Position numbers and translations under genes: made by a program. A model generated the notes under the pieces. It was given only the letters and a program-made list of their open reading frames with translations. It made no database searches and was not told the origin of the DNA. A stretch of 64,000 nt of DNA from Baekduia sp. (GTDB taxonomy: Bacteria > Actinomycetota > Thermoleophilia > Solirubrobacterales > Solirubrobacteraceae): assembly GCA_037045385.1 (NCBI GenBank), contig JBAOHN010000008.1, positions 754,481 through 818,480 on the forward strand, given 5' to 3'. This document shows positions 1,422 through 55,312 of the stretch, piece by piece (within the stretch, counting starts at the first letter, position 1; each line of letters begins with the position of its first letter).

Positions 1422-2801
1422 TCAGGTGAGCGCTGCGCGCACCTGCCGGGCCGCGCGGCGGCCGGACAGGAGCGCCCCGTGGACGGTCGCGCTGTAGTCC
1501 GGTTCGGTCGCCTCACCGGCGAGGAACACGCGCTCCTCGACCGGCTCGGTCAGTGCGCGGCGGTCGGCCGGGGTCGCGCCGACGACCGTCGCCGAATAGG
1601 AGCCGAGCGCGTAGCGGTCGGTCGACCAGGACGTCGTCCGGGTCGCGACCGGATCGGGAACCGACCGGCCGAACATCTCGCGCAGCGTGCGCATCGCCTC
1701 GGCCTGCACCTCGCTGCGGGCGCTCCGCTCGACCGCTCGGCCGAGGTCGCCGCCGTTGAAGCCGACGAGCACCGGGGCGCCGGCGCGCGCGAGGCTGACC
1801 CATTCGGCCCAGGCCCCTGCCCGCGGCCCGACGTACTCGAGCCAGTCGACGTCCTGCGGCCAGAACGGGCGCTCGAACCGCAGGAACGTCTTGCTGAGCA
1901 CGCCCATCCGCAGCCGCTCGACGGCCTCGGCGATCTTCGGCGGGATCGAGAAGCGGAAGTCGATCGACTCGTCGCGCAGGACACCGAGCGGCACCGTCAC
2001 GATCATCGCGTCGGCCAGCCACGCACCCCGGTTGGTCGCCAGATACACCCCGCCGGGTCGCAGGTCGACCCGGCGCACGACGACGCCGAGCCGGACCGGC
2101 ACGTTGCGCGCCAGGTACCGCGGGATCGCGTCGTACCCCCACGGCAGCAGCGCGTCCTCGCCGTCCTCGCCGAACGTCCTGCCGTCGTCGGCGTGCCAAG
2201 CCGACATCCGGCGCGGAGCCTCGCCGAACTCGGTCGTCACCGTGCTGTTCAGGAAGAAGGCGAGGTCGGCGCGCTCGGCGGGGTCGAGCGGCGGGCGCCG
2301 CGCCAGCTCGCGGTCGATCGCGCGCTCGATCGAGATGTCGCGCGGCGCGGCTCCGGCGCGCTCCAGGGCCCGTTCGCTCAGGCGCTGCCAGCGCGCGGTG
2401 TCGGGCTCGGTCAGGCCGGTCGCCCGCAGCGCGCGGTCGACGTACACCTCGCCGGAGTCGTAGGAGGTCCGCAGCACCCGGGCGCCGGCGGTGCGGGCGA
2501 CCTCGGTCAGCGGGTTGCCGGAGGCGCCGTGGATCCACGACGCGCCGACGTCGATCGTCGCACCCGGCCAGCTGCGGTCGGTGCGGATCCTGCCGCCGAT
2601 CCGCGGGCGCGCCTCGAGCACCTCCACGGCGAACCCGGCGGCCCGCAGATCCTGCGCGGCTGAGAGCCCGGCGACACCGGCGCCGACCACGAGCACCCGC
2701 TGGACCGAGCGCCTGATCGGCCGGCAGCCGCTGCCGGCGGACGTCGCCAAGGCGGCTCCGGCGGCACCGGCGAGGAACGTTCGGCGCGTGTGCGGCCCCA
2801 T
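1422..2801 (-). CDS. FAD-dependent amine oxidase with twin-arginine signal
   Basis: N-terminus MGPHTRRTFLAGAAGAALA (TAT-like), dinucleotide-binding VVGAGVAGLSAA, flavin amine oxidase-like C-terminus (..VFLAGEAT..). Confidence 0.8.
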   Translation of the reverse strand: MGPHTRRTFLAGAAGAALATSAGSGCRPIRRSVQRVLVVGAGVAGLSAAQDLRAAGFAVEVLEARPRIGGRIRTDRSWPGATIDVGASWIHGASGNPLTEVARTAGARVLRTSYDSGEVYVDRALRATGLTEPDTARWQRLSERALERAGAAPRDISIERAIDRELARRPPLDPAERADLAFFLNSTVTTEFGEAPRRMSAWHADDGRTFGEDGEDALLPWGYDAIPRYLARNVPVRLGVVVRRVDLRPGGVYLATNRGAWLADAMIVTVPLGVLRDESIDFRFSIPPKIAEAVERLRMGVLSKTFLRFERPFWPQDVDWLEYVGPRAGAWAEWVSLARAGAPVLVGFNGGDLGRAVERSARSEVQAEAMRTLREMFGRSVPDPVATRTTSWSTDRYALGSYSATVVGATPADRRALTEPVEERVFLAGEATEPDYSATVHGALLSGRRAARQVRAALT

Positions 2802-2844: not shown

Positions 2845-2898
2845 CCGCAAGGGTTGAATCGCGTTCTTCCGCCGCAGGGTCTGTTTAGGGTTCTCCCG
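2845..2898 (+). repeat. two imperfect 27-bp direct repeats in the hup upstream region
   Basis: CCGCAAGGGTTGAATCGCGTTCTTCCG / CCGCAGGGTCTGTTTAGGGTTCTCCCG (about 19/27 identical, hand count), 32 nt upstream of the hup ATG. Confidence 0.4.
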
Positions 2899-2929
2899 TA
2901 CCGCAGTCCAACGAGGAGAACCTCACGAC

Positions 2930-3208
2930 ATGAACAAGACAGAGCTGATCGATGCTGTCGCCGCCGACAGTGGCCTGAGTGGGGCCGACGCCCGTAGGGC
3001 CGTCGAGTCGCTCCTCGGCACGATCGAGGGCGCGCTGAAGAAGGGCGACGAGGTCGCGATCACCGGCTTCGGCAAGTTCTCGGTCGCCCATCGCGGCGCC
3101 CGTACCGGCCGCAACCCGCAGACCGGCGCCCCGGTCCAGATCGCGGCGAGCAAGGCCCCGAAGTTCTCCGCGGGCGCAGGCCTCAAGGCCAGCGTCAAGG
3201 GCAGCTAG
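2930..3208 (+). CDS. hup: HU family nucleoid-associated DNA-binding protein
   Basis: 92 aa, MNKTELIDAVA...RNPQTGAP.. signature, SD-like GAGGAGAA upstream. Confidence 0.95.
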   Translation: MNKTELIDAVAADSGLSGADARRAVESLLGTIEGALKKGDEVAITGFGKFSVAHRGARTGRNPQTGAPVQIAASKAPKFSAGAGLKASVKGS

Positions 3209-3502: not shown

Positions 3503-4213
3503 CTACAGGGCGTCGAAGCGCGCTTGGCGCAGCCGTCGCGCGGTCAGCTCCGACCAGGGCTCACCGATCGCGTCGAGCGCTGCCGCCGATCGCTCGTCGT
3601 CGTAGGCGACCCGCCGCAGCGTGACCGCGAGGTCCGGTCCGATCAGCGCGTAGGCTGCGCGGCGGTCGCCGTCCCACGGCAGCCCGACGCTGCCGGGGTT
3701 GACGATCCGGATGCCACCAGCCCCGTCCCGCGCGTACTGCACGTGGACGTGGCCGCCGAGCTGGAGGCGTTCACCGGCACCGGCCAGGACTCGCTCGTCA
3801 TCGCCGGCCGCCGGCGCGAACGCCTCCATGTCGCCGAGCGGTGACGCGTGGCTGATCCGCAGCCCTGCGGTCGCGAGCGTCTGCGGCAGCGCCGCCAGCC
3901 GCTCCACACGAGCGGCGCCGAGCGCTGCGACCGCGAAGGCGCCGGCGCCCTGCACGACTTCGGTTTGCGGCGCGCCGTCCGGCTCTGCCTGCCAGCGCTC
4001 CCAGTTGCCGCGGATCCAGGTCGCAGCGTCACCGAGCGCTTCGAGCCGCCCGACCGTCTCGAGCGGCCAGGCGCCGAACGCTGCGTAGTCGCCTCCGAGC
4101 AGGAAGCGCTCGGCGCCGGCGGCGCGCGCGTCGTCCAAGGTCGCGTCGAGCGCCGGCAGGTTGCCGTGGAGGTCGAACAGCGCGGCGATCATGCTGCTGC
4201 CGAGCCTACGCAT
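3503..4213 (-). CDS. metallophosphoesterase
   Basis: DLHGN near the N-terminus, GDY.., GNWE.., GHVHV motifs of calcineurin-like phosphoesterases. Confidence 0.75.
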   Translation of the reverse strand: MRRLGSSMIAALFDLHGNLPALDATLDDARAAGAERFLLGGDYAAFGAWPLETVGRLEALGDAATWIRGNWERWQAEPDGAPQTEVVQGAGAFAVAALGAARVERLAALPQTLATAGLRISHASPLGDMEAFAPAAGDDERVLAGAGERLQLGGHVHVQYARDGAGGIRIVNPGSVGLPWDGDRRAAYALIGPDLAVTLRRVAYDDERSAAALDAIGEPWSELTARRLRQARFDAL

Positions 4214-4226
4214 ACGCTGACGCCCG

Positions 4227-4826
4227 ATGTCCGGGCGCGTGCTCCTCTCGATCGTCGGGCTCGTGATGCTGTTGGCGGCGTTCGCCTACCTGTCGGCGCG
4301 GCGTTCGATCGAGGCGACTGAGCAGCTCGCCGAGAAGGCCGCGCTCGCGCAGACGGGGCGCGAGATCGACGTCCGCTGCCCTGGACCGATCGCCGAGCGG
4401 TTCGACAAGCCGCTGCTCGAAGGCCAGGTCCGGTTCGACGGCGACGGTGTGCCACTGCCGTACACGAAGCTGTCGCCGAAAGCCTGCAAAGGGCTGCGTG
4501 TGCTCGAGCAGCGGATCACGCGGCTCGATTGGGACTGCCTGCCCGCCACCTTCACTCCAGGGTTCGAGTTGGCGTCGTCAGACGGGACGACCTGCCGCAA
4601 CGAGGAGCCCAAGGCCGCGCTCGGGGTCGCGGTCCTGGCGCACGAGCTGATGCACCTGCGCGGCGTCGCCGACGAGGCGCGGGCTGAGTGCCTGGCGCGA
4701 AAACGGCTACCTGCCGTCGCCGCCGCGCTCGGGCTCGATGAGCGCGAGATCGCCGCGGTCTCGGCGTACCAGGTCAACGTGCTCGGTCCGCAGCTCGGTC
4801 CTCAGTACCAGGGTGGGAGTTGCTGA
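4227..4826 (+). CDS. membrane-anchored hypothetical protein with HExxH motif
   Basis: N-terminal TM helix (LLSIVGLVMLLAAFAYL), several Cys, VLAHELMHLRG (HExxH). Confidence 0.5.
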   Translation: MSGRVLLSIVGLVMLLAAFAYLSARRSIEATEQLAEKAALAQTGREIDVRCPGPIAERFDKPLLEGQVRFDGDGVPLPYTKLSPKACKGLRVLEQRITRLDWDCLPATFTPGFELASSDGTTCRNEEPKAALGVAVLAHELMHLRGVADEARAECLARKRLPAVAAALGLDEREIAAVSAYQVNVLGPQLGPQYQGGSC

Positions 4827-5799: not shown

Positions 5800-6629
5800 G
5801 CGATCTCGAACCTGACCTCCTGCCCGGGCCGCACTTGGGCGGCGAGCGGCAGGTCGTCGTGGACGACGACTCCGATCACGGGGTAGCCACCGGTCGTCGG
5901 ATGGTCTGCGAGCAGAACGATCGGCTCGCCCGATGGCGGCACCTGGATAGCGCCGGTGACGATGCCCTCGGAGCGCAGCTCGCCGTCGCGAGCGCGCGCG
6001 AGCGGCGGGCCGGTGAGCCGGAGCCCGGTGCGGTTGCTGGCCGGTGACGCGGTGTAGGCGCGGCCGTCGAGCCCAGTGGAGAACCAATCGTCGCGCGGGC
6101 CGGCGACGATGCGCAGCGTCACCGGTCCGGCCTGAGGAGTTGCAGGCGTGGCGGCCTCGCGCGGATGGCCGTGCGCGGGGCCCAGCGTGAACCGGTCGCC
6201 GTCACGCAGCGGCGGCGGGCCGAGGCCGGTCAGCAGGTCGGTCGCGCGGCTGCCGAGCACCGGTGGGCCGTCGATCCCGCCGCTGAACGCCACGTATGAG
6301 CGCAGGCCGGCGCTCGCCGCGCCGATCTCGATCAGCGCCCCGGCAGCCACCGCGTGCGCCGCGCCGTGCACCGCCGGCGTGCCGTCGACGGTGATTGCTG
6401 CCGGAGCGCCGGTGACCGCGAAGGTGAGCGCCGTCGCGGCTCGCAGCGCTGGCCCGCGAACCGTCGTCTCGAGCATCGCGTCACCAGCATCGCCGCCGAC
6501 GAGCGCGAGCGCGGCCTCCAGCGCCGGCAGGTCGAGCGCACCGGAGGGCGGCACGCCGATGTGCGCCCAGCCCGGTCGCCCGCGGTCCTGGATCGTCGTC
6601 AGCGGCCCGGCACGGACGACCTCGATCAC
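5796..6629 (-). CDS. pxpC: 5-oxoprolinase subunit C (KipA / allophanate hydrolase subunit 2 family)
   Basis: VIEVVRAGPLTTIQDRGRPG.. N-terminus. The GTG start overlaps the pxpB stop (GTGA at 6626-6629). The track ORF extends spuriously to 7058. Confidence 0.85.
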   Translation of the reverse strand: MIEVVRAGPLTTIQDRGRPGWAHIGVPPSGALDLPALEAALALVGGDAGDAMLETTVRGPALRAATALTFAVTGAPAAITVDGTPAVHGAAHAVAAGALIEIGAASAGLRSYVAFSGGIDGPPVLGSRATDLLTGLGPPPLRDGDRFTLGPAHGHPREAATPATPQAGPVTLRIVAGPRDDWFSTGLDGRAYTASPASNRTGLRLTGPPLARARDGELRSEGIVTGAIQVPPSGEPIVLLADHPTTGGYPVIGVVVHDDLPLAAQVRPGQEVRFEIA

Positions 6630-7251
6630 GCGCGTGGCTCCCGCGTGAAGCGCACGGTCATCCCCGGCTCGAGCAGCGCGGGGCGCTCGCGTTCCTGGTC
6701 GAACAGGACGGCGCCGGTCGTCCCGATCAGCCGCCAGCCTCCCGGCGACTCGCGTGGGTAGACGGCCGAGTACGGCCCGCCGAGGGCGACCGACCCGGCC
6801 GGGACCGACTGCCGCGGCGCGTCGAGGCGCGGCACGGCCAGCAGCGGATCGCCGCCGAGCAGATACGCGAACCCCGGCATGAAGCCGCAGAACGCGACCT
6901 CGTAGCTGGCGGCGACATGCCGCGCCACCACCTCCTCGGGCGACACGCCGGCGTGGGCGGCGACATCGGCCAGATCGGCACCGTCGTAGCGCACCGCGAT
7001 CTCGACCTCGCGTGCCCTGGGACTTTCTGTCGCTGAGCGAGAGAAACTCACATGGCACGCGTCGCGGATCGCTCCGATCGGCGGTGCCTGGGCGCTGAAG
7101 ACGAGCAGGACCGTCTCGTGGCCAGCTACGACATCGGTGAGCTGCGCGCCAAAAGCGGCACGGGCCGCGTCCGCGATCGCGTGCACGGCGGAGTGGCCAG
7201 CGGCCGGCTCGACCAGGACGGCGCGGTCACCGGCGGGGAGGACGGTGACGC

Positions 7252-7255
<4 letters not shown>
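6626..7255 (-). CDS. pxpB: 5-oxoprolinase subunit B (KipI family)
   Basis: ..FCGFMPGFAYL.. and ..GGPYSAVYP..SPGGW.. motifs. ATGA overlap with pxpA. Confidence 0.85.
7012..7058. repeat. 47-nt imperfect palindromic element, copy A (inside pxpB)
   Basis: GTGCCCTGGGACTTTCTGTCGCTGAGCGAGAGAAACTCACATGGCAC. The arms pair at about 18/22 positions. Same design as the copies at 28789 and 29710. Confidence 0.7.
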
Positions 7256-26037: not shown

Positions 26038-27690
26038 GTGGACGCCGGACCTTCGCTCTACCGCCGCTACCGCCCGCGCACGTTCGCGGACGTCGTCGGG
26101 CAGGAGCACGTCGTCCGCACGCTGCGCAACGCCGTCGAGTCCGGGCAGGTCCATCACGCCTACCTGTTCGTCGGCTCGCGCGGGACCGGCAAGACGTCGA
26201 TGGCGAAGATGCTCGCGGCATGCCTGAACTGCGAGCGCGGGCCGACGACCGACCCGTGCGGCGAGTGCGACTCCTGCCAGGCGATCGCCGCCGCGACGTC
26301 GCTCGACGTGATCGAGATGGACGCGGCGTCCAACAACTCGGTCGATGACATCCGCGACCTGCGCGACTCGGTGCAGTTCGCGCCGGTATCGGGCCGCTCG
26401 AAGGTCTACATCCTCGACGAGGCGCACATGCTCACGCCGCAGGCGTGGAACGCGTTTCTCAAGACGCTCGAGGAGCCGCCGCCAAACACGGTCTTCGTGC
26501 TCGCCACGACCGAGGCGCACAAGATCATGGACACGGTCGTCGACCGGTGCCACCGCTTCGACTTCCACCGGCCGACGGTCGAGCAACTCGTCACGGTGGT
26601 CCGTCGCGTCGCCGAGCGCGAGCAGATCGAGATCGCTCCCGACGCGGCGATGCTGATCGCCCGTGGGGCGACCGGCTCCTACCGCGACGCGCTCGGCACG
26701 CTCGAGCAGCTCCTGACGTACGCCGGTGCGCAGATCGCCGCCGCCGATGTCGCCGCCGTACTCGGCGTCTCCGACGACGAGCTGCTGTTCGGAGCGATCG
26801 ACGCGATTGCCGGCGCCGAGGCCGCCGACTGCTGGCGCGTGGCTGCCCGTCTCGCCGAGTCCGGGCGGGACGCACGGCGGTTCATCGAGGATCTCGAGGC
26901 CCACGCGCGCGACCTGCTCGTCGTGCAGACGCTGGCGGCGGTTCCCCCGCAGCTGGCGACGACCGAGGACCGCGACAGGCGGCTGCTCGAGCAGGCGCAG
27001 CGCTCGCCGGGCACGGCGATCATCCGCCTGCTAGATCTGCTTGGCGCCGCGCTCCACCGGATCAAGGATGGCGGCGACGAGCAGACCCAGCTCGAGATCG
27101 CGCTCGTCAAGGCGGCATCGCCGCAGATCGATCCGACCACGAAGGCCCTGCTGGCGCGGATCGAGCGGCTCGAGCAGAGCGCGCCGGCGCCCGCGCCCGC
27201 GGAGGCGATGATGACGACGGAGGCGCCCGCGATGGCGCCCGAACCAGAGGTCGTCAGCGAGCCGGTCGCTGTTACTGCGGCGCGGGCAGTCCCTGCCGCG
27301 CCGGCGGCCGCACCCGATCTCGCCTTCATCGAGGAGCTCTGGCCGGCGGTCATCGACGCGATCCGCGAAGAGCATCAGCTAGTGGCCGTCAGTGTCGGTG
27401 ACGCGCGCCCGACCGCCCTGCAAGGCGGCGAGCTGACGCTGACGTTCCCACCGGACAAGGGCTTCCAGCGCCGTAAAGCCGAGTCGACCGAGGGGCGCCA
27501 GCTGATTGTGAACGCGGTCCGCAGCCTGACCGGCGCAGGCGTGAGCCTCGCGTTCACCTCCGGCGAGCTGCCCGATTCGGGTGGCGGCACGGGGGTGCTC
27601 AGCGAGGAGGACCTGGTCGACCGGCTGCGGGCCGAGTTCGACGCCGTTGACGATGCCCCTGCCGGGGGCGCCCCCGAAGGAGCCGCGTAG
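26038..27690 (+). CDS. dnaX: DNA polymerase III subunit gamma/tau
   Basis: ..YRPRTFADVVGQEHV.., Walker A GSRGTGKTS, zinc module CGECDSC, Ala/Pro-rich C-terminus. Confidence 0.95.
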   Translation: MDAGPSLYRRYRPRTFADVVGQEHVVRTLRNAVESGQVHHAYLFVGSRGTGKTSMAKMLAACLNCERGPTTDPCGECDSCQAIAAATSLDVIEMDAASNNSVDDIRDLRDSVQFAPVSGRSKVYILDEAHMLTPQAWNAFLKTLEEPPPNTVFVLATTEAHKIMDTVVDRCHRFDFHRPTVEQLVTVVRRVAEREQIEIAPDAAMLIARGATGSYRDALGTLEQLLTYAGAQIAAADVAAVLGVSDDELLFGAIDAIAGAEAADCWRVAARLAESGRDARRFIEDLEAHARDLLVVQTLAAVPPQLATTEDRDRRLLEQAQRSPGTAIIRLLDLLGAALHRIKDGGDEQTQLEIALVKAASPQIDPTTKALLARIERLEQSAPAPAPAEAMMTTEAPAMAPEPEVVSEPVAVTAARAVPAAPAAAPDLAFIEELWPAVIDAIREEHQLVAVSVGDARPTALQGGELTLTFPPDKGFQRRKAESTEGRQLIVNAVRSLTGAGVSLAFTSGELPDSGGGTGVLSEEDLVDRLRAEFDAVDDAPAGGAPEGAA

Positions 27691-28101
27691 ATGCCTCAGC
27701 CTCAGAACCTCCAGAAGATGCTCGCCCAGGCCCAGGAGATGATGGCCGCCCAGCAAGAGGCGCAGGAGCGTCTCAAGGACGAGTCGGTCGACGCGTCGGC
27801 GGGCGGTGGGATGGTCAAGGTCACGATCAGCGGCGACATGCAGATCAAGTCGCTCACGATCGACCCCGACGCGATCGATCCTGACGATCCTGAGATGCTC
27901 GAGGACCTCGTGCTCGCGGCGGTGAACGAGGGTCTGCGGCAGGCAGCGCAGCTCGCCGAGCAGGCGACGTCCGGGTCGGGCGGAGCGGACTTCGACCCGA
28001 TGGCGGCGCTCGAGTCGCTCGGGCTCGGCGGGCCTGCACCGGGCGGTGCCGGGGCGATGAACCGCGCGCAGCGCAGGGCGGCGCAGCGTAAGGGCAAGTA
28101 G
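27691..28101 (+). CDS. ybaB: YbaB/EbfC nucleoid-associated protein
   Basis: ..MLAQAQEMMAAQQEAQERL..GGMVKVTISG.. Canonical position between dnaX and recR. Confidence 0.9.
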   Translation: MPQPQNLQKMLAQAQEMMAAQQEAQERLKDESVDASAGGGMVKVTISGDMQIKSLTIDPDAIDPDDPEMLEDLVLAAVNEGLRQAAQLAEQATSGSGGADFDPMAALESLGLGGPAPGGAGAMNRAQRRAAQRKGK

Positions 28102-28104
28102 CGC

Positions 28105-28728
28105 GTGCTCGCACCTCCGGTCGAGCGCCTGATCGCCGAGCTGTCGCGTCTTCCCGGCATCGGCCAGCGGACGGCGCAGCGGCTCGCGTTCCACATCCTG
28201 CGCGCCGACGCCGAGCAGGCCGGCGCGCTCGCTGCGGCCATCGGCGAGGTCCGCGAGCGGATCGGCTTCTGCCACATCTGCTTCAACCTGGCCGAGAAGC
28301 CGGCCGACGGTTCTCCGTTGGTCTGTCCCGTATGCGCCGATGCCCGTCGCGACACGGCGGAGATCTGCGTCGTTGAGGAGTTCGGCGACGTGCTGCCGAT
28401 CGAGCGCACGCACGAGTTCCGCGGCCGCTACCACGTGCTCGGCGGCGCGCTGTCGCCGATCGACGGCGTCGACCCCGAAGACCTGCGGCTCGACGAGCTG
28501 TACGCGCGCGTGACCGGCTCAGACGGGGTCCGCGAGGTGGTCATCGCGACCAACCCGACGACGACCGGCGAGGCGACCGCGCTGCACATCGCCCGCGTCC
28601 TCGGCGAGCGGGCCCCTGATGTGGTCGTGACGCGCCTCGCCTCCGGTCTGCCCGTCGGTGGCGACCTCGAGTACGCCGACGAGCTGACCCTCGGCCGCGC
28701 CTTCCTCGGCCGCCGCACGATCTCCTGA
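28105..28728 (+). CDS. recR: recombination protein RecR
   Basis: HhH ..[14 protein letters not shown].., Cys4 CHICFNL..CPVC, Toprim region. GTG start. Confidence 0.95.
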
Positions 28729-28788
28729 GCGCCGGCGCAGCGGCGCCGCAACTGTGTCTGGAGTCGCCGCAGGCGCGGCGGTTTGCTC

Positions 28789-28835
28789 GTGCCATGCGAC
28801 TTATGCCGCTGGAGGCGGCAGAACTCACAGGGCAC
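28789..28835. repeat. 47-nt imperfect palindromic element, copy B (5' flank of the DUF559 gene)
   Basis: GTGCCATGCGACTTATGCCGCTGGAGGCGGCAGAACTCACAGGGCAC. About 36/47 identical to copy C (hand count). Confidence 0.7.
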
Positions 28836-29720
28836 GAGCAGGTGGCGCGGATCGCCTCAACGCAGGATGGCCTAATCACGACTGCTCAGCTGCGGGCTGC
28901 CACCGGCAGCCGTCACGCCCCGAGTGACTGGGCGGCACGTGGGCTGGTTCACCGGCTGCATCTCGGCGTCTACGCGGTCGGGCACACGGCGCTGACGGTG
29001 CGCGCGCACCGGCGCGCCGCGTTGCTCGCGATCGGGCGCGGGGCGGCGCTGAGCCATTGGAGTGCATCTGCGCTGCTGAACATGCAGCGCAGCGAGCCCG
29101 ACGTCGTCCATGTCGGCGTCTCGTCCGGCCGCGTCGTCTCTCGACCGGCCATCGTGGTCCACCACCTGCACTCGCTACGCCCCGGCGATGTCACCGTCGT
29201 CGATGGGGTTCGCTGCACTACGGCGGCGCGCACGCTCGTCGACCTGGCCGGCAAGAAGGAGTGCCGGAACCTCAAACGGCTCTGCGAGCAGACGGAGTTC
29301 CTCGGCCTCCTCGACCTGCCGGCGATCGCGGAGACGATCGAACGCATGAGCTACCCACACGGCTCGAGGGTTCTCCGCGAGTTGCTCGCGATCACGACGC
29401 TCGGCACCTCGAAGGCCGGCAGCAAGTTCGAGCGCCGCGTGCTCAAGGCCATCCTCGACGCTCCCCTCGGTGATCCGGTTCTCCAGCAGCCGTTCGACCT
29501 GCCCAGCATTGGCCGCATCTACGTCGACTTCTACTGGCCCGAGCACAACCTCGTCGTCGAGGCCGACGGCCCGCATCACAAGCTCCCGCTCCAGCGCGCC
29601 AAGGACATCGTGCGCGACGAGGCGCTTGCAGCGATCGGCGTCCCGGTCGTCCGCATCCCGCAGGAGGACTTCGACGCCGATCCGCGCGGCCAGATCGCCC
29701 GCATCGCATCTGCGATGTGA
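28794..29720 (+). CDS. DUF559 (Vsr-like endonuclease fold) domain protein
   Basis: C-terminus ..VDFYWPEHNLVVEADGPHHKLPLQRAKDIVRDEALAAIGVPVVRI.. typical of DUF559. The first 16 codons lie inside palindrome B, so the GTG at 28842 is an alternative start. Confidence 0.75.
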   Translation: MRLMPLEAAELTGHEQVARIASTQDGLITTAQLRAATGSRHAPSDWAARGLVHRLHLGVYAVGHTALTVRAHRRAALLAIGRGAALSHWSASALLNMQRSEPDVVHVGVSSGRVVSRPAIVVHHLHSLRPGDVTVVDGVRCTTAARTLVDLAGKKECRNLKRLCEQTEFLGLLDLPAIAETIERMSYPHGSRVLRELLAITTLGTSKAGSKFERRVLKAILDAPLGDPVLQQPFDLPSIGRIYVDFYWPEHNLVVEADGPHHKLPLQRAKDIVRDEALAAIGVPVVRIPQEDFDADPRGQIARIASAM

Positions 29721-29756
29721 CTTTCGCCGCGAGGAGCGGCAGAAGTCACAGGCCAC
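29710..29756. repeat. 47-nt imperfect palindromic element, copy C (3' flank of the DUF559 gene)
   Basis: CTGCGATGTGACTTTCGCCGCGAGGAGCGGCAGAAGTCACAGGCCAC. It contains the DUF559 stop codon (29718-29720). Confidence 0.7.
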
Positions 29757-29782
29757 GCGGGGGATACCATGGCTCGCTCCCC

Positions 29783-31048
29783 ATGGAGCGCACGATTGTC
29801 ATGAAGTTCGGCGGCACCTCGGTCGCTGACGCGGAGCGGCTGAAGAACGCCGCGCGCAAGATCGTCGCCAAGCGCGAGGAGGGCTACGGCGTCGTCGCCG
29901 TCCTGAGCGCGCGCGGCAAGGAGACCGACCGGCTGATCGCCGATGCGTTCGAGGTCTCCCCGGCGCCCGACCCGCGCGAGATGGACATGCTGTTGTCGAC
30001 CGGCGAGCGCGTCAGCTGCGCGCTCTGCGCGATGGCGATCAACGACCTCGGCCACCGCGCGATCAGCCTCACCGGCTCGCAGGCCGGGATCGTTACCGAC
30101 ACGAGCCACACGAAGGCGCGGATCCTCGACGTGCGCGCTGACCGCATCCGCGAGGCCCTCAGCGAGGACCACATCGTGCTCGTCGCCGGCTTCCAGGGTG
30201 TCTCGACCGCCAAGGACGTTACGACCCTCGGCCGTGGCGGCTCGGACACGACCGCCGTTGCACTCGCGGCGGCCGTCGGCGCCGAGGAGTGCGAGATCTA
30301 CACCGACGTTCCTGGCGTCTTCAGCGCCGACCCGCGGATCGTCGCCAACGCCAAGAAGCTCGACGTCGTCAGCTTCGACGAGATGCTCGAGATGTCGGCC
30401 TCCGGCGCCGGCGTGCTCCAGCTCCGCAGCGTCGAGTACGCCCGCAACCACGGCGTGCGCGTGCACTGCCGCTCGAGCTTCGACCACCGTGACGGGACGC
30501 GCGTCGTCTCACAAGAGGAAGCGAAGGATCATCCGATGGAGAACCCGCTGATCACCGCCGTGACCCACTCGCGCAGCGAGGCGCGCGTGACGCTCGTCGG
30601 CGTGCCCGACAGCCCCGGCGTCGCCGGGCGCGTGACGACCGCGCTCGCGGACGCCGGCGTCAACATCGACATGATCATCCAGAACGAGCCTCGCTCCGAG
30701 GGTGCGCTGGCGGAGCTGTCCTTCACGGTCCCGCAGGACGACGCGCAGGCCGCTGGCGCTGCGCTCGCGCCGATCGCGAGCGAGCTCGGGATCGGCGTCG
30801 AGACCGACGACGGGATGGGGAAGGTGTCGATCGTCGGCGCCGGGATGAAGTCCCACCCAGGCGTGGCCGCGACGGTCTTCAGCGTGCTCGGTGAGGCCGG
30901 CATCAACATCGAGATGATCTCGACCTCGCCGATCCGGATCTCCTGCGTCGTCGCCGGCGATCGTGTCGATGACGCGGTCACGGCGCTCCACGACGCGTTC
31001 GAGCTGAGCGGCGAGGACACGATCCAGGTCGAGGACCCGTTCGCATGA
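29783..31048 (+). CDS. ask: aspartate kinase
   Basis: ..VMKFGGTSVAD.. and two C-terminal ACT domains. ATG at 29783 chosen (the track starts at GTG 29717 inside palindrome C). Confidence 0.9.
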   Translation: MERTIVMKFGGTSVADAERLKNAARKIVAKREEGYGVVAVLSARGKETDRLIADAFEVSPAPDPREMDMLLSTGERVSCALCAMAINDLGHRAISLTGSQAGIVTDTSHTKARILDVRADRIREALSEDHIVLVAGFQGVSTAKDVTTLGRGGSDTTAVALAAAVGAEECEIYTDVPGVFSADPRIVANAKKLDVVSFDEMLEMSASGAGVLQLRSVEYARNHGVRVHCRSSFDHRDGTRVVSQEEAKDHPMENPLITAVTHSRSEARVTLVGVPDSPGVAGRVTTALADAGVNIDMIIQNEPRSEGALAELSFTVPQDDAQAAGAALAPIASELGIGVETDDGMGKVSIVGAGMKSHPGVAATVFSVLGEAGINIEMISTSPIRISCVVAGDRVDDAVTALHDAFELSGEDTIQVEDPFA

Positions 31049-55271: not shown

Positions 55272-55312
55272 GCTGGGGGTTGGTGTTAGGTGCCCCTAAC
55301 CCCAACCCCAGC
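55272..55312 (-). terminator. about 17-bp hairpin downstream of the M50 protease gene
   Basis: GCTGGGGGTTGGTGTTAGG-tgcc-CCTAACCCCAACCCCAGC (one bulge, one mismatch). It lies between the stop at 55328 and the sdhA start at 55223. Confidence 0.45.

Follow-up and report, generated by a model that had tools for sequence, protein, structure and literature searches.

Two similar palindromes bracket an AbiEi-DUF559 fusion gene between recR and ask in Baekduia sp.

AbiEi, the repressor of the type IV AbiE toxin-antitoxin systems, recognises a pair of 23-bp inverted repeats with 3 bp between them, located in its own promoter just upstream of the start codon; Rv2827c occupies two pairs in tandem between -1 and -131 relative to its start, and in both cases the sites overlap the promoter (PMC7319586). 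AbiEi repressors that act at palindromic operators are known, as are DUF559/Vsr-like nucleases; no paper was found in the literature that links AbiEi, DUF559 and palindromes, the only prior hint being an entry in PMC9881135, and no characterised member of an AbiEi-DUF559 fusion family was found in the literature searched. Here we describe such a fusion gene in a 64,000-nt stretch of the Baekduia sp. assembly GCA_037045385.1 (contig JBAOHN010000008.1; hereafter the window), where it lies between recR and ask and is bracketed by two 47-nt palindromes, B and C. Residues 5-204 of its product are a complete AbiEi-type winged-helix repressor, fused to a DUF559 nuclease domain, and on balance B and C are probably cognate, dyad-symmetric DNA sites of the AbiEi-like winged-helix domain encoded between them. 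A toxin-less fusion bracketed by two co-evolving copies of what would be its own site, with in-place inversions and a dispersed copy, appears to be undescribed.

The window locus resembles AbiEi and Rv2827c in the fold of the protein (a winged-helix N-terminal domain followed by a C-terminal domain) and in the layout of its sites, which are two ~23-bp inverted repeats with a short gap, at or overlapping the start, and which occur as tandem palindrome pairs at some homologous loci, as at Prv2827c. Unlike in the AbiE systems, there is no AbiEii toxin gene, a DUF559 domain is fused C-terminally, a second site stands at the stop codon and a third in another gene, and binding and repression are predictions. 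The C-terminal domain is alike, by profile and by fold, to the EDxHD (Vsr-like) homing endonuclease I-Bth0305I and to the DUF559 structure 3HRL, with the E-x-D...H...D residues kept. Like that of I-Bth0305I, the gene is free-standing and wedged into a conserved string of genes; unlike it, the gene lies outside any intron or intein, encodes an AbiEi-like DNA-binding module, is flanked by two whole palindromes and not by two target halves, and shows no sign of recent homing.

The fusion protein and its putative operator

The main features of the locus, by window coordinates, are as follows.

28789-28835 (core; extended 28784-28840), no strand: palindrome B, with a core of two 21-nt arms and a 5-nt centre; proposed AbiEi-type operator or binding site.
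28794-29720, plus strand: AbiEi-DUF559 fusion gene, 308 aa; the alternative start GTG 28842 would give 292 aa.
28806-29405, plus strand: AbiEi-like part (residues 5-204), a winged-helix N-terminal domain and an AbiEi C-terminal domain.
29508-29711, plus strand: DUF559 nuclease domain (PF04480; residues 239-306), of the Vsr-like PD-(D/E)xK fold.
29710-29757 (core 29710-29756), no strand: palindrome C, a direct-repeat copy of B; proposed second copy of the same site.

The PADLOC models of AbiEi matched the protein over residues 5-179 (E 6.9e-27) and 15-204 (E 1.8e-18). Its AlphaFold2 model has a predicted local distance difference test score of 92.5, the sole low-confidence N-terminal stretch being residues 1-10, which are encoded by B, and the best Foldseek match in the PDB was the S. 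agalactiae AbiEi 6Y8Q_A (E 6e-7, probability 1.00, target-normalised TM-score 0.66, 202 columns). This repressor had been overlooked in the initial annotation, which had recognised the DUF559 domain and ascribed a Vsr-like nuclease fold to it. Both of those assignments hold: PF04480 scores 35.3 bits over residues 239-306, against a gathering cut-off of 20.6, and the C-terminal domain matches 3HRL and I-Bth0305I (3R3P) by profile (3e-10 and 2e-4, respectively) and by fold (target-normalised TM-scores of 0.70 and 0.73), with its catalytic residues conserved. In 46 homologs D245 and D258 are invariant, and E256, H262 and D271 are at least 90% conserved. No NCBIfam family matches the fusion protein, which holds the AbiEi and DUF559 domains only, with no recombinase or transposase domain, including those of the HUH/Y1 (IS200-like) type. 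No AbiEii (DUF1814 nucleotidyltransferase) toxin gene is adjacent, the neighbours being recR and ask here and in all orthologs.

B and C had been reported as two 47-nt elements, about 36/47 identical, that contain the start and the stop of the open reading frame (ORF), and the measurements agree: identity is 36/47 at those coordinates and 37/47 (79%) in the register 28790-28836/29711-29757, the ATG (28794) falls within the left arm of B, and the TGA (29718-29720) within the left arm of C. Exactly two matches to their common design, GACTTNNGCCGCN5GCGGCAGAANTCACAGG, were present in the 64 kb, to which all counts of palindrome copies refer, where shuffles gave an expectation of 0.00. The stem of ~21 bp proposed for each was confirmed as to its dyad symmetry, both elements being imperfect palindromes, as reported. 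The core of B forms 17 of 21 Watson-Crick pairs, its 26-nt arms (28784-28809/28815-28840) being 85% complementary, and as single-stranded DNA it folds at -22.6 kcal/mol (z = -6.4); that of C forms 15 of 21 pairs and folds more weakly, at -15.4 kcal/mol (z = -2.6). The two stand as direct repeats (score 45, against 29 for the inverted orientation) and, being palindromic, are also 72% complementary to each other. Their spacing of 921 nt (3 x 307) places the repeat in the same reading frame at both ends of the ORF, and a CGA in B corresponds to the TGA in C.

Given an AbiEi-type repressor domain and the known AbiEi operators, the simpler primary reading of the palindromes is that they are the binding sites of the protein itself. 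B matches the AbiEi operators in geometry and position, with arms of 21-26 nt, a gap of 5 nt and an end that lies 1 nt before the in-frame GTG at 28842. This GTG, directly past B, is kept in the orthologs L011 and L012 (related loci carry L numbers) and may be the real start of the fusion gene. Two protomers would bind the two ~21-23-nt arms of B, abutting or overlapping the start codon, and the protein so bound would repress its own gene, as AbiEi and Rv2827c do. C would repeat this site at the stop codon; gene conversion would maintain its likeness to B, and the protein could thereby bind at either end of its own gene. The whole unit is a selfish-looking nuclease cassette that was inserted between recR and ask long ago and has since been inherited vertically and become fixed. 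Binding to the sites, autoregulation and any nuclease action are predictions made from sequence and structural models; since cognate dyad sites of 47-49 bp provide a predicted DNA target for each protein, all of binding, cleavage and autoregulation are directly testable.

The surrounding genes all lie on the plus strand, in the order dnaX (26038-27690), ybaB (27691-28101), recR (28105-28728), the 308-codon ORF, ask and asd, with ask beginning at 29783 (first possible start) or 29801 and ending at 31048. B starts 56 nt past the stop of recR, and the last base of C lies 25 nt ahead of the first possible start of ask. An Rfam gathering scan of the window returned a tRNA and signal recognition particle RNA only, with no match at the palindromes, and a consensus scan of 28500-30000 detected no terminator-like site, nor does a T-run follow B or C. 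An 'ARIAS' peptide at both ends of the protein, together with an extra inverted repeat, had been a candidate for a longer repeat; the DNA similarity is not kept in L011 and L012, and it was treated as chance.

Palindromes across the gene family and their joint evolution

Homologs were collected by a scan of species-representative genomes with a 10-sequence alignment, which returned at least 572 relatives, and the best 80 loci, picked by similarity to the window protein, were analysed. All of these belong to the Solirubrobacterales/Thermoleophilia and include Conexibacter, Baekduia and Solirubrobacter soli; the best hit in the scan of GTDB species representatives was 44%. The wider family comprises 13,685 cluster representatives (50% identity) at E <= 1e-3, or 5,102 at E <= 1e-10. 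AbiEi-DUF559 genes are multi-copy in Solirubrobacterales, where routine annotation calls them just 'DUF559' or 'very-short-patch-repair endonuclease'.

For each gene the flank on the upstream side was locally aligned to the one on the downstream side, with mismatched pairs of flanks as the null. Matching repeats above the 99th percentile of the null were present at 20 of 81 loci, 16 of them above its maximum. These repeats measure 31-59 nt (one compound repeat 105 nt), are mostly palindromic and differ wholly in sequence from locus to locus; the upstream copy ends 1-15 nt ahead of the conserved N-terminus in many pairs, in 14 of the 16 best pairs the stop lies 3-73 nt past the start of the downstream copy, and direct repeats and palindromes coincide within ~4 nt. 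A palindrome scan made independently of the repeats (hairpins of at least 34 nt adjoining the N-terminus or near the stop) detected an upstream palindrome at 46/81 loci, against 42/292 (14%) of control windows, and a near-stop palindrome at 29/81, against 13% of controls. In the upstream palindromes the median arm is 20 nt (interquartile range 19-23), the centre 5.5 nt and the whole 49 nt, and 28 of 48 end 1-20 nt ahead of the conserved N-terminus. With a stricter score, an upstream hairpin was found at 31 of 83 loci, where 1.1 would be expected. The bracketing design is family-wide in Solirubrobacterales and recurs in what is a large gene family of soil actinobacteria; ~60 of the 81 loci have no detectable downstream copy.

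Each gene lineage has a palindrome sequence of its own, and the type is kept with the gene across species and contexts. Over 590 kb of related loci, strong palindromes concentrate at the boundaries of AbiEi-DUF559 genes, with few of the same build elsewhere. The association of gene and palindrome that had been proposed for the window extends to related loci, each with its own type at the gene boundaries, and the palindromes, with three copies in the 64 kb, do not look like a genome-wide REP family.

The palindromes B and C of five syntenic recR-X-ask orthologs (including the window), all of which keep both, were aligned without gaps together with a third copy, A. In these 11 palindromes the positions T2, G3, T7, G8 and T13 and their partners A35, C40, A41 and C45 are invariant, and changes on both sides occur in 11 of the 21 symmetric pairs, a covariation count that comes from few and related sequences. 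Paired cells amount to 74.5%, compared with 65.3% in shuffles and at most 48% in slid controls, and one-sided G-T states are rare (1 of 21 pairs); because such intermediates are rare, the pattern fits DNA dyad symmetry better than an RNA hairpin. When the window, L011 and L012 were compared, 17-23 of the outer 28 nt were identical, as against 3-9 of the inner 19 nt. Identity of B and C within a genome is 36, 38, 39 and 45 of 47 in four lineages and only 30/47 in L182, whereas positional counterparts in different genomes share 21-34 of 47. Conservation lies in the outer arms, the inner stems vary by compensatory changes, and B and C of one genome evolve together. In a second group of orthologs (L032, L054, L067 and L094) the arms GCCGACGGGCCG...CGGCCCGTCGGC are kept in all members and the centre varies or is flipped.

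The third copy lies far from the gene, within another coding sequence:

7009-7061, no strand: copy A, a 53-nt palindrome of the B/C family, inside pxpB (5-oxoprolinase subunit B; 6626-7255, minus strand).

Copy A has the outer arms of B and C with the same 33-nt arm spacing, and folds with z = -5.7. It encodes a hypervariable linker of PxpB, in which alignment shows no clear gain of length, and it was not traceable through orthologs, no PxpB homologs more than 62% identical being found. It is 41/47 identical to both palindromes of L181, as against 29/47 to B and 26/47 to C of its own window, from which sequence comparison indicates that copy A keeps the ancestral sequence. Because it is closer to the sites of L181 than to its own B and C, the palindrome must have been copied to a remote site at least once, and B and C must later have changed their inner parts together.

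The stems of B (28789-28835) and A (7012-7058) each show a single mismatch at every third position (6, 9, 12, 15 and their partners). These positions are also mismatched in most orthologous copies, and no shared reading frame accounts for the pattern. A coding signature was considered as its source and rejected, A, B and C being read, if at all, in different frames and on different strands.

Insertion between recR and ask and the competing explanations

A comparison of the recR-ask junction in relatives, proposed in the initial annotation, was carried out: it is filled throughout the species and in the four closest lineages, and lacks the gene in more distant relatives. The exact protein was found in 83 blocks of the assembly collection and lay between recR and ask at 10 of the 10 places shown (23 contigs read), and all 16 contigs with the exact RecR carry the gene. 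Among 12 same-species contigs the 1072-nt interval is 100% identical in 11, and the twelfth (L179) ends after 428 nt with one mismatch; neither presence/absence nor inversion polymorphism was seen within the species, with one orientation in these 12 contigs and the gene in all of the 16. The gene occupies the same site in four further lineages (L011, L012, L181 and L182), where its product is 60-69% identical, compared with 91-95% for Ask and 80-95% for RecR in L011 and L012. At more distant recR loci (RecR 54-75% identical) it is present at 0 of 80, and 20 of these loci have recR-ask spacers below 320 nt (30-302 nt), all without the gene. Relative to these loci the gene has been inserted. Among 83 loci, none has a near-identical copy in another context; identity between genes in different contexts reaches ~55-65%, all closer pairs are syntenic, and the pairs above 55% that share flanks are syntenic orthologs in which conservation is much higher in the adjacent genes than in the cassette gene. 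The species-wide invariance, the syntenic lineages and the lack of near-identical copies elsewhere mean that the cassette has not been recently mobile. Of the small mobile cassette originally suggested, then, the insertion stands and recent mobility does not: the gene is an old insertion, now fixed, vertically inherited and fast-evolving.

The recR-ask interval varies in other lineages too. In L105 (~1495-1662) the 167-nt spacer is filled by four consecutive, different, perfect GC-rich palindromes of 22-24 nt with centres CATG, CATGTG or GCATGC, which are elements of another kind than B and C. In L108, L116, L125, L128, L140, L143, L145 and L168 the interval consists of 1.2-1.8 kb of unrelated genes (e.g., glycoside-hydrolase-like and aldo-keto-reductase-like). 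These genes were considered as family members and are unrelated to AbiEi-DUF559; insertions are generally tolerated at this junction.

Elsewhere the cassette differs in orientation and surroundings. It is inverted in place relative to the same flanks in L046 compared with L043/L057, and in L066 compared with L038/L059. In L046 a ~70-nt unit containing the palindrome is also repeated, with one extra copy upstream and at least three in tandem downstream (2880-3000 and 3900-4770). Flanking pairs are direct in ~15 cases and inverted in five, and are mixed even among orthologs (L067 direct; L032 and L054 inverted). A 34%-identical homolog in L079 (2870-3980) lies antisense between ybaB and recR, genes usually separated by 3 nt. 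This homolog has a palindrome on its upstream side but none downstream, its stop and the end of ybaB overlap, and it is an independent insertion into the same gene string. In L104 (RecR 71% identical) the empty recR-ask spacer holds a single 48-nt palindrome of the same build, GACGTTGGCGCGATTTCCACGTCCTGGTGTGGATTTCGCGCAAACGTC (~3115-3165). It resembles those flanking the L018 homolog and could be a solo site or an excision footprint. The members of one subfamily (L022, L035, L043, L045 and L057; 55-71% protein identity) stand in different genomic contexts and have in common a leader of ~130 nt, about -190 to -60 before the gene and upstream of the palindrome (CGCGCGTGTCTTGTCACAAACGCGTCTGGATCGGTAAC ... 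ATGGAGGGG), an ATGGAG start and the palindrome, which falls within the 5' end of the ORF and is translated as a basic N-terminal peptide, MEGxGxKRxxxGRF. As leader, start and palindrome are shared across contexts, the site travels with the gene and does not stem from the target. On these grounds, duplication of a palindrome already present at the target site was rejected as a general origin, and also because the closest empty spacers (L099, L106 and L117) contain no matching palindrome.

Several points weigh against reading B and C as operator-like sites. The operator role rests on homology and geometry, Pfam AbiEi_4 does not match the window protein at E 0.01 (it does match close homologs), and a consensus scan, which is weak for high-GC actinobacteria, found no recognisable sigma-70-like promoter in or near B. 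Classical AbiEi operators lie upstream only, so that the second copy, present at about a quarter of loci and in all five recR-ask orthologs, is left unexplained, and this downstream copy abuts the conserved C-terminus so tightly that the stop lies inside it (14/16 best pairs). In L011 it is the upstream copy, and not the downstream one, that has lost its hairpin potential. Conservation of the dyad would fit recognition of a cruciform or hairpin equally well as binding of two protomers. Operators do not explain the tight bracketing of the ORF, the inversions or the remote copy, all of which are covered if B and C are the terminal sites of a nuclease-driven mobile cassette, an explanation that is compatible with the operator reading and that we regard as possible, with some doubt. 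In that case the protein would bind the palindrome and its DUF559 domain would cut at or beside it; insertion, or recombination between a cassette site and a genomic solo site, would leave a full site on each side, and the same sites would then mediate excision, inversion and the spread of solo copies. The coincidence of repeats with palindromes at the loci that exceed the null, the insertions into conserved gene strings (recR-ask, and antisense ybaB-recR in L079) opposite empty spacers in relatives, the solo palindrome of L104, the two in-place inversions, the mixture of direct and inverted pairs, copy A as a remote copy of the ancestral site and the kinship of the nuclease domain with a homing endonuclease all argue for it. 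It is countered by the fixation and invariance of the gene within the species and its synteny in four further lineages, by the want of near-identical copies in different contexts and of a detectable downstream copy at most loci, by the closest empty sites, which have no matching palindrome, by the L043 subfamily, where the palindrome is inside the transferred unit, downstream of the conserved leader and ATG, which excludes a target-site duplication as its origin there, and by the absence of a recombinase or transposase domain. A stronger form of the same idea, which we think unlikely, is that AbiEi-DUF559 genes are a new class of selfish cassette whose own ~47-bp binding site serves both as operator and for recombination or insertion. 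In it the nuclease would act at the bound palindrome, possibly as a cruciform, and yield duplication of the whole site, in-place inversion, homogenisation of sites and occasional solo sites, including some in coding regions such as pxpB; if true, Thermoleophilia would have a counterpart of REP/RAYT or integron-cassette biology that is built on a nuclease.

Two further explanations dispense with recognition of the palindromes by the protein. B and C could act as RNA hairpins that are alike by common descent only, the 5' one masking the start or stabilising the mRNA and the 3' one serving as terminator or stabiliser. Both elements would be co-transcribed with the gene, B and A form much better folds than shuffled sequences, compensatory changes keep the pairing, and in the L043 subfamily the palindrome lies within the 5' end of the ORF, but there is no T-tract, terminator-like site or Rfam family, one-sided changes of the G-U type are almost absent (1/21 pairs), the outer arms are conserved in sequence and not just in pairing, the stem mismatches recur at the same positions in most copies, and copy A is antisense-neutral inside another gene, which together make this explanation improbable. 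A terminator role of the upstream copies was ruled out by L079, where the upstream palindrome lies between divergent genes and cannot terminate anything, and by the L043 subfamily. The other possibility, put forward in the initial annotation, is that the palindromes are independent elements like REP sequences or miniature inverted-repeat transposable elements that land at gene junctions, with the DUF559 gene a bystander. Copy A away from the gene, the solo palindrome of L104 and the extra or tandem copies near the gene in L046, L056 and L058 would suit such elements. They would not be expected to concentrate at AbiEi-DUF559 boundaries (31 upstream where 1.1 are expected, in the 590 kb of related loci) with few of the same build elsewhere, to keep a lineage-specific sequence type with the gene across species and contexts, or to number just three in the 64-kb window. 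We therefore mostly reject this proposal and consider it highly improbable, copy A showing that one remote copying did occur.

Related systems and further palindromes

REP/REPIN-RAYT systems were reportedly described by Nunvar in 2010 and by Bertels and Rainey in 2011. The AbiEi-DUF559 locus is like them in having a vertically inherited, single-locus, nuclease-like gene flanked by its putative cognate palindromes, of a type particular to each gene lineage, which evolve in concert and have at least one dispersed copy. Unlike in REP/REPIN-RAYT systems, the enzyme is not an HUH/Y1 transposase, and dispersed copies appear to be rare (one in 64 kb), that one being in a coding region and not outside genes. 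Integron cassettes and their attC sites offer another parallel, as the ORF is tightly bracketed by imperfect palindromes whose outer parts are conserved and inner parts variable, the start and stop codons lie in the sites, and the sites are more alike within than between genomes. In contrast to integrons, the locus has neither integrase nor array and lies among housekeeping genes, the sites have outer arms GTGCC...GGCAC and no RYYYAAC/GTTRRRY core, and site sequence differs wholly between paralogs.

Among predicted targets of programmed inversion, where long-range inverted repeats overlap coding sequences, the annotation 'DUF559 domain-containing protein' is enriched (odds ratio 14.3; Milman et al. 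2023, PMC9881135). That report is an enrichment statistic in a table entry, and does not extend to anatomy, a link to AbiEi or an analysis of palindromes. In the present family the orientation of the cassette differs between species at two loci; unlike in programmed inversion, there is no invertase gene near the window cassette and there are no inversion variants at the window locus. Nuclease action at the protein's own sites, if it occurs, would open a new way for genes to move or genomes to be rearranged that needs neither transposase nor recombinase, and would account for DUF559 genes standing out in programmed-inversion screens. If the sites serve autoregulation only, the locus neatly extends AbiEi biology to a nuclease fusion that has no toxin partner.

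Two other palindromes were observed in the window. One, at 55276-55309, is the 34-nt palindrome GGGGTTGGTGTTAGGTGCCCCTAACCCCAACCCC. The other, at 1370-1420, is a near-perfect 51-nt palindrome, CGTCGATGGTCATCAGATCGCGCGATATGCGCGATCTGATGACCATCGACG, with 23-nt arms and a 5-nt centre, and is located between convergent genes for an acyl-CoA dehydrogenase (137-1354) and an amine oxidase (1422-2801, minus strand). Its geometry is that of AbiEi-type sites, but no AbiEi-DUF559 gene is nearby, and it could be a bidirectional terminator or a solo site.

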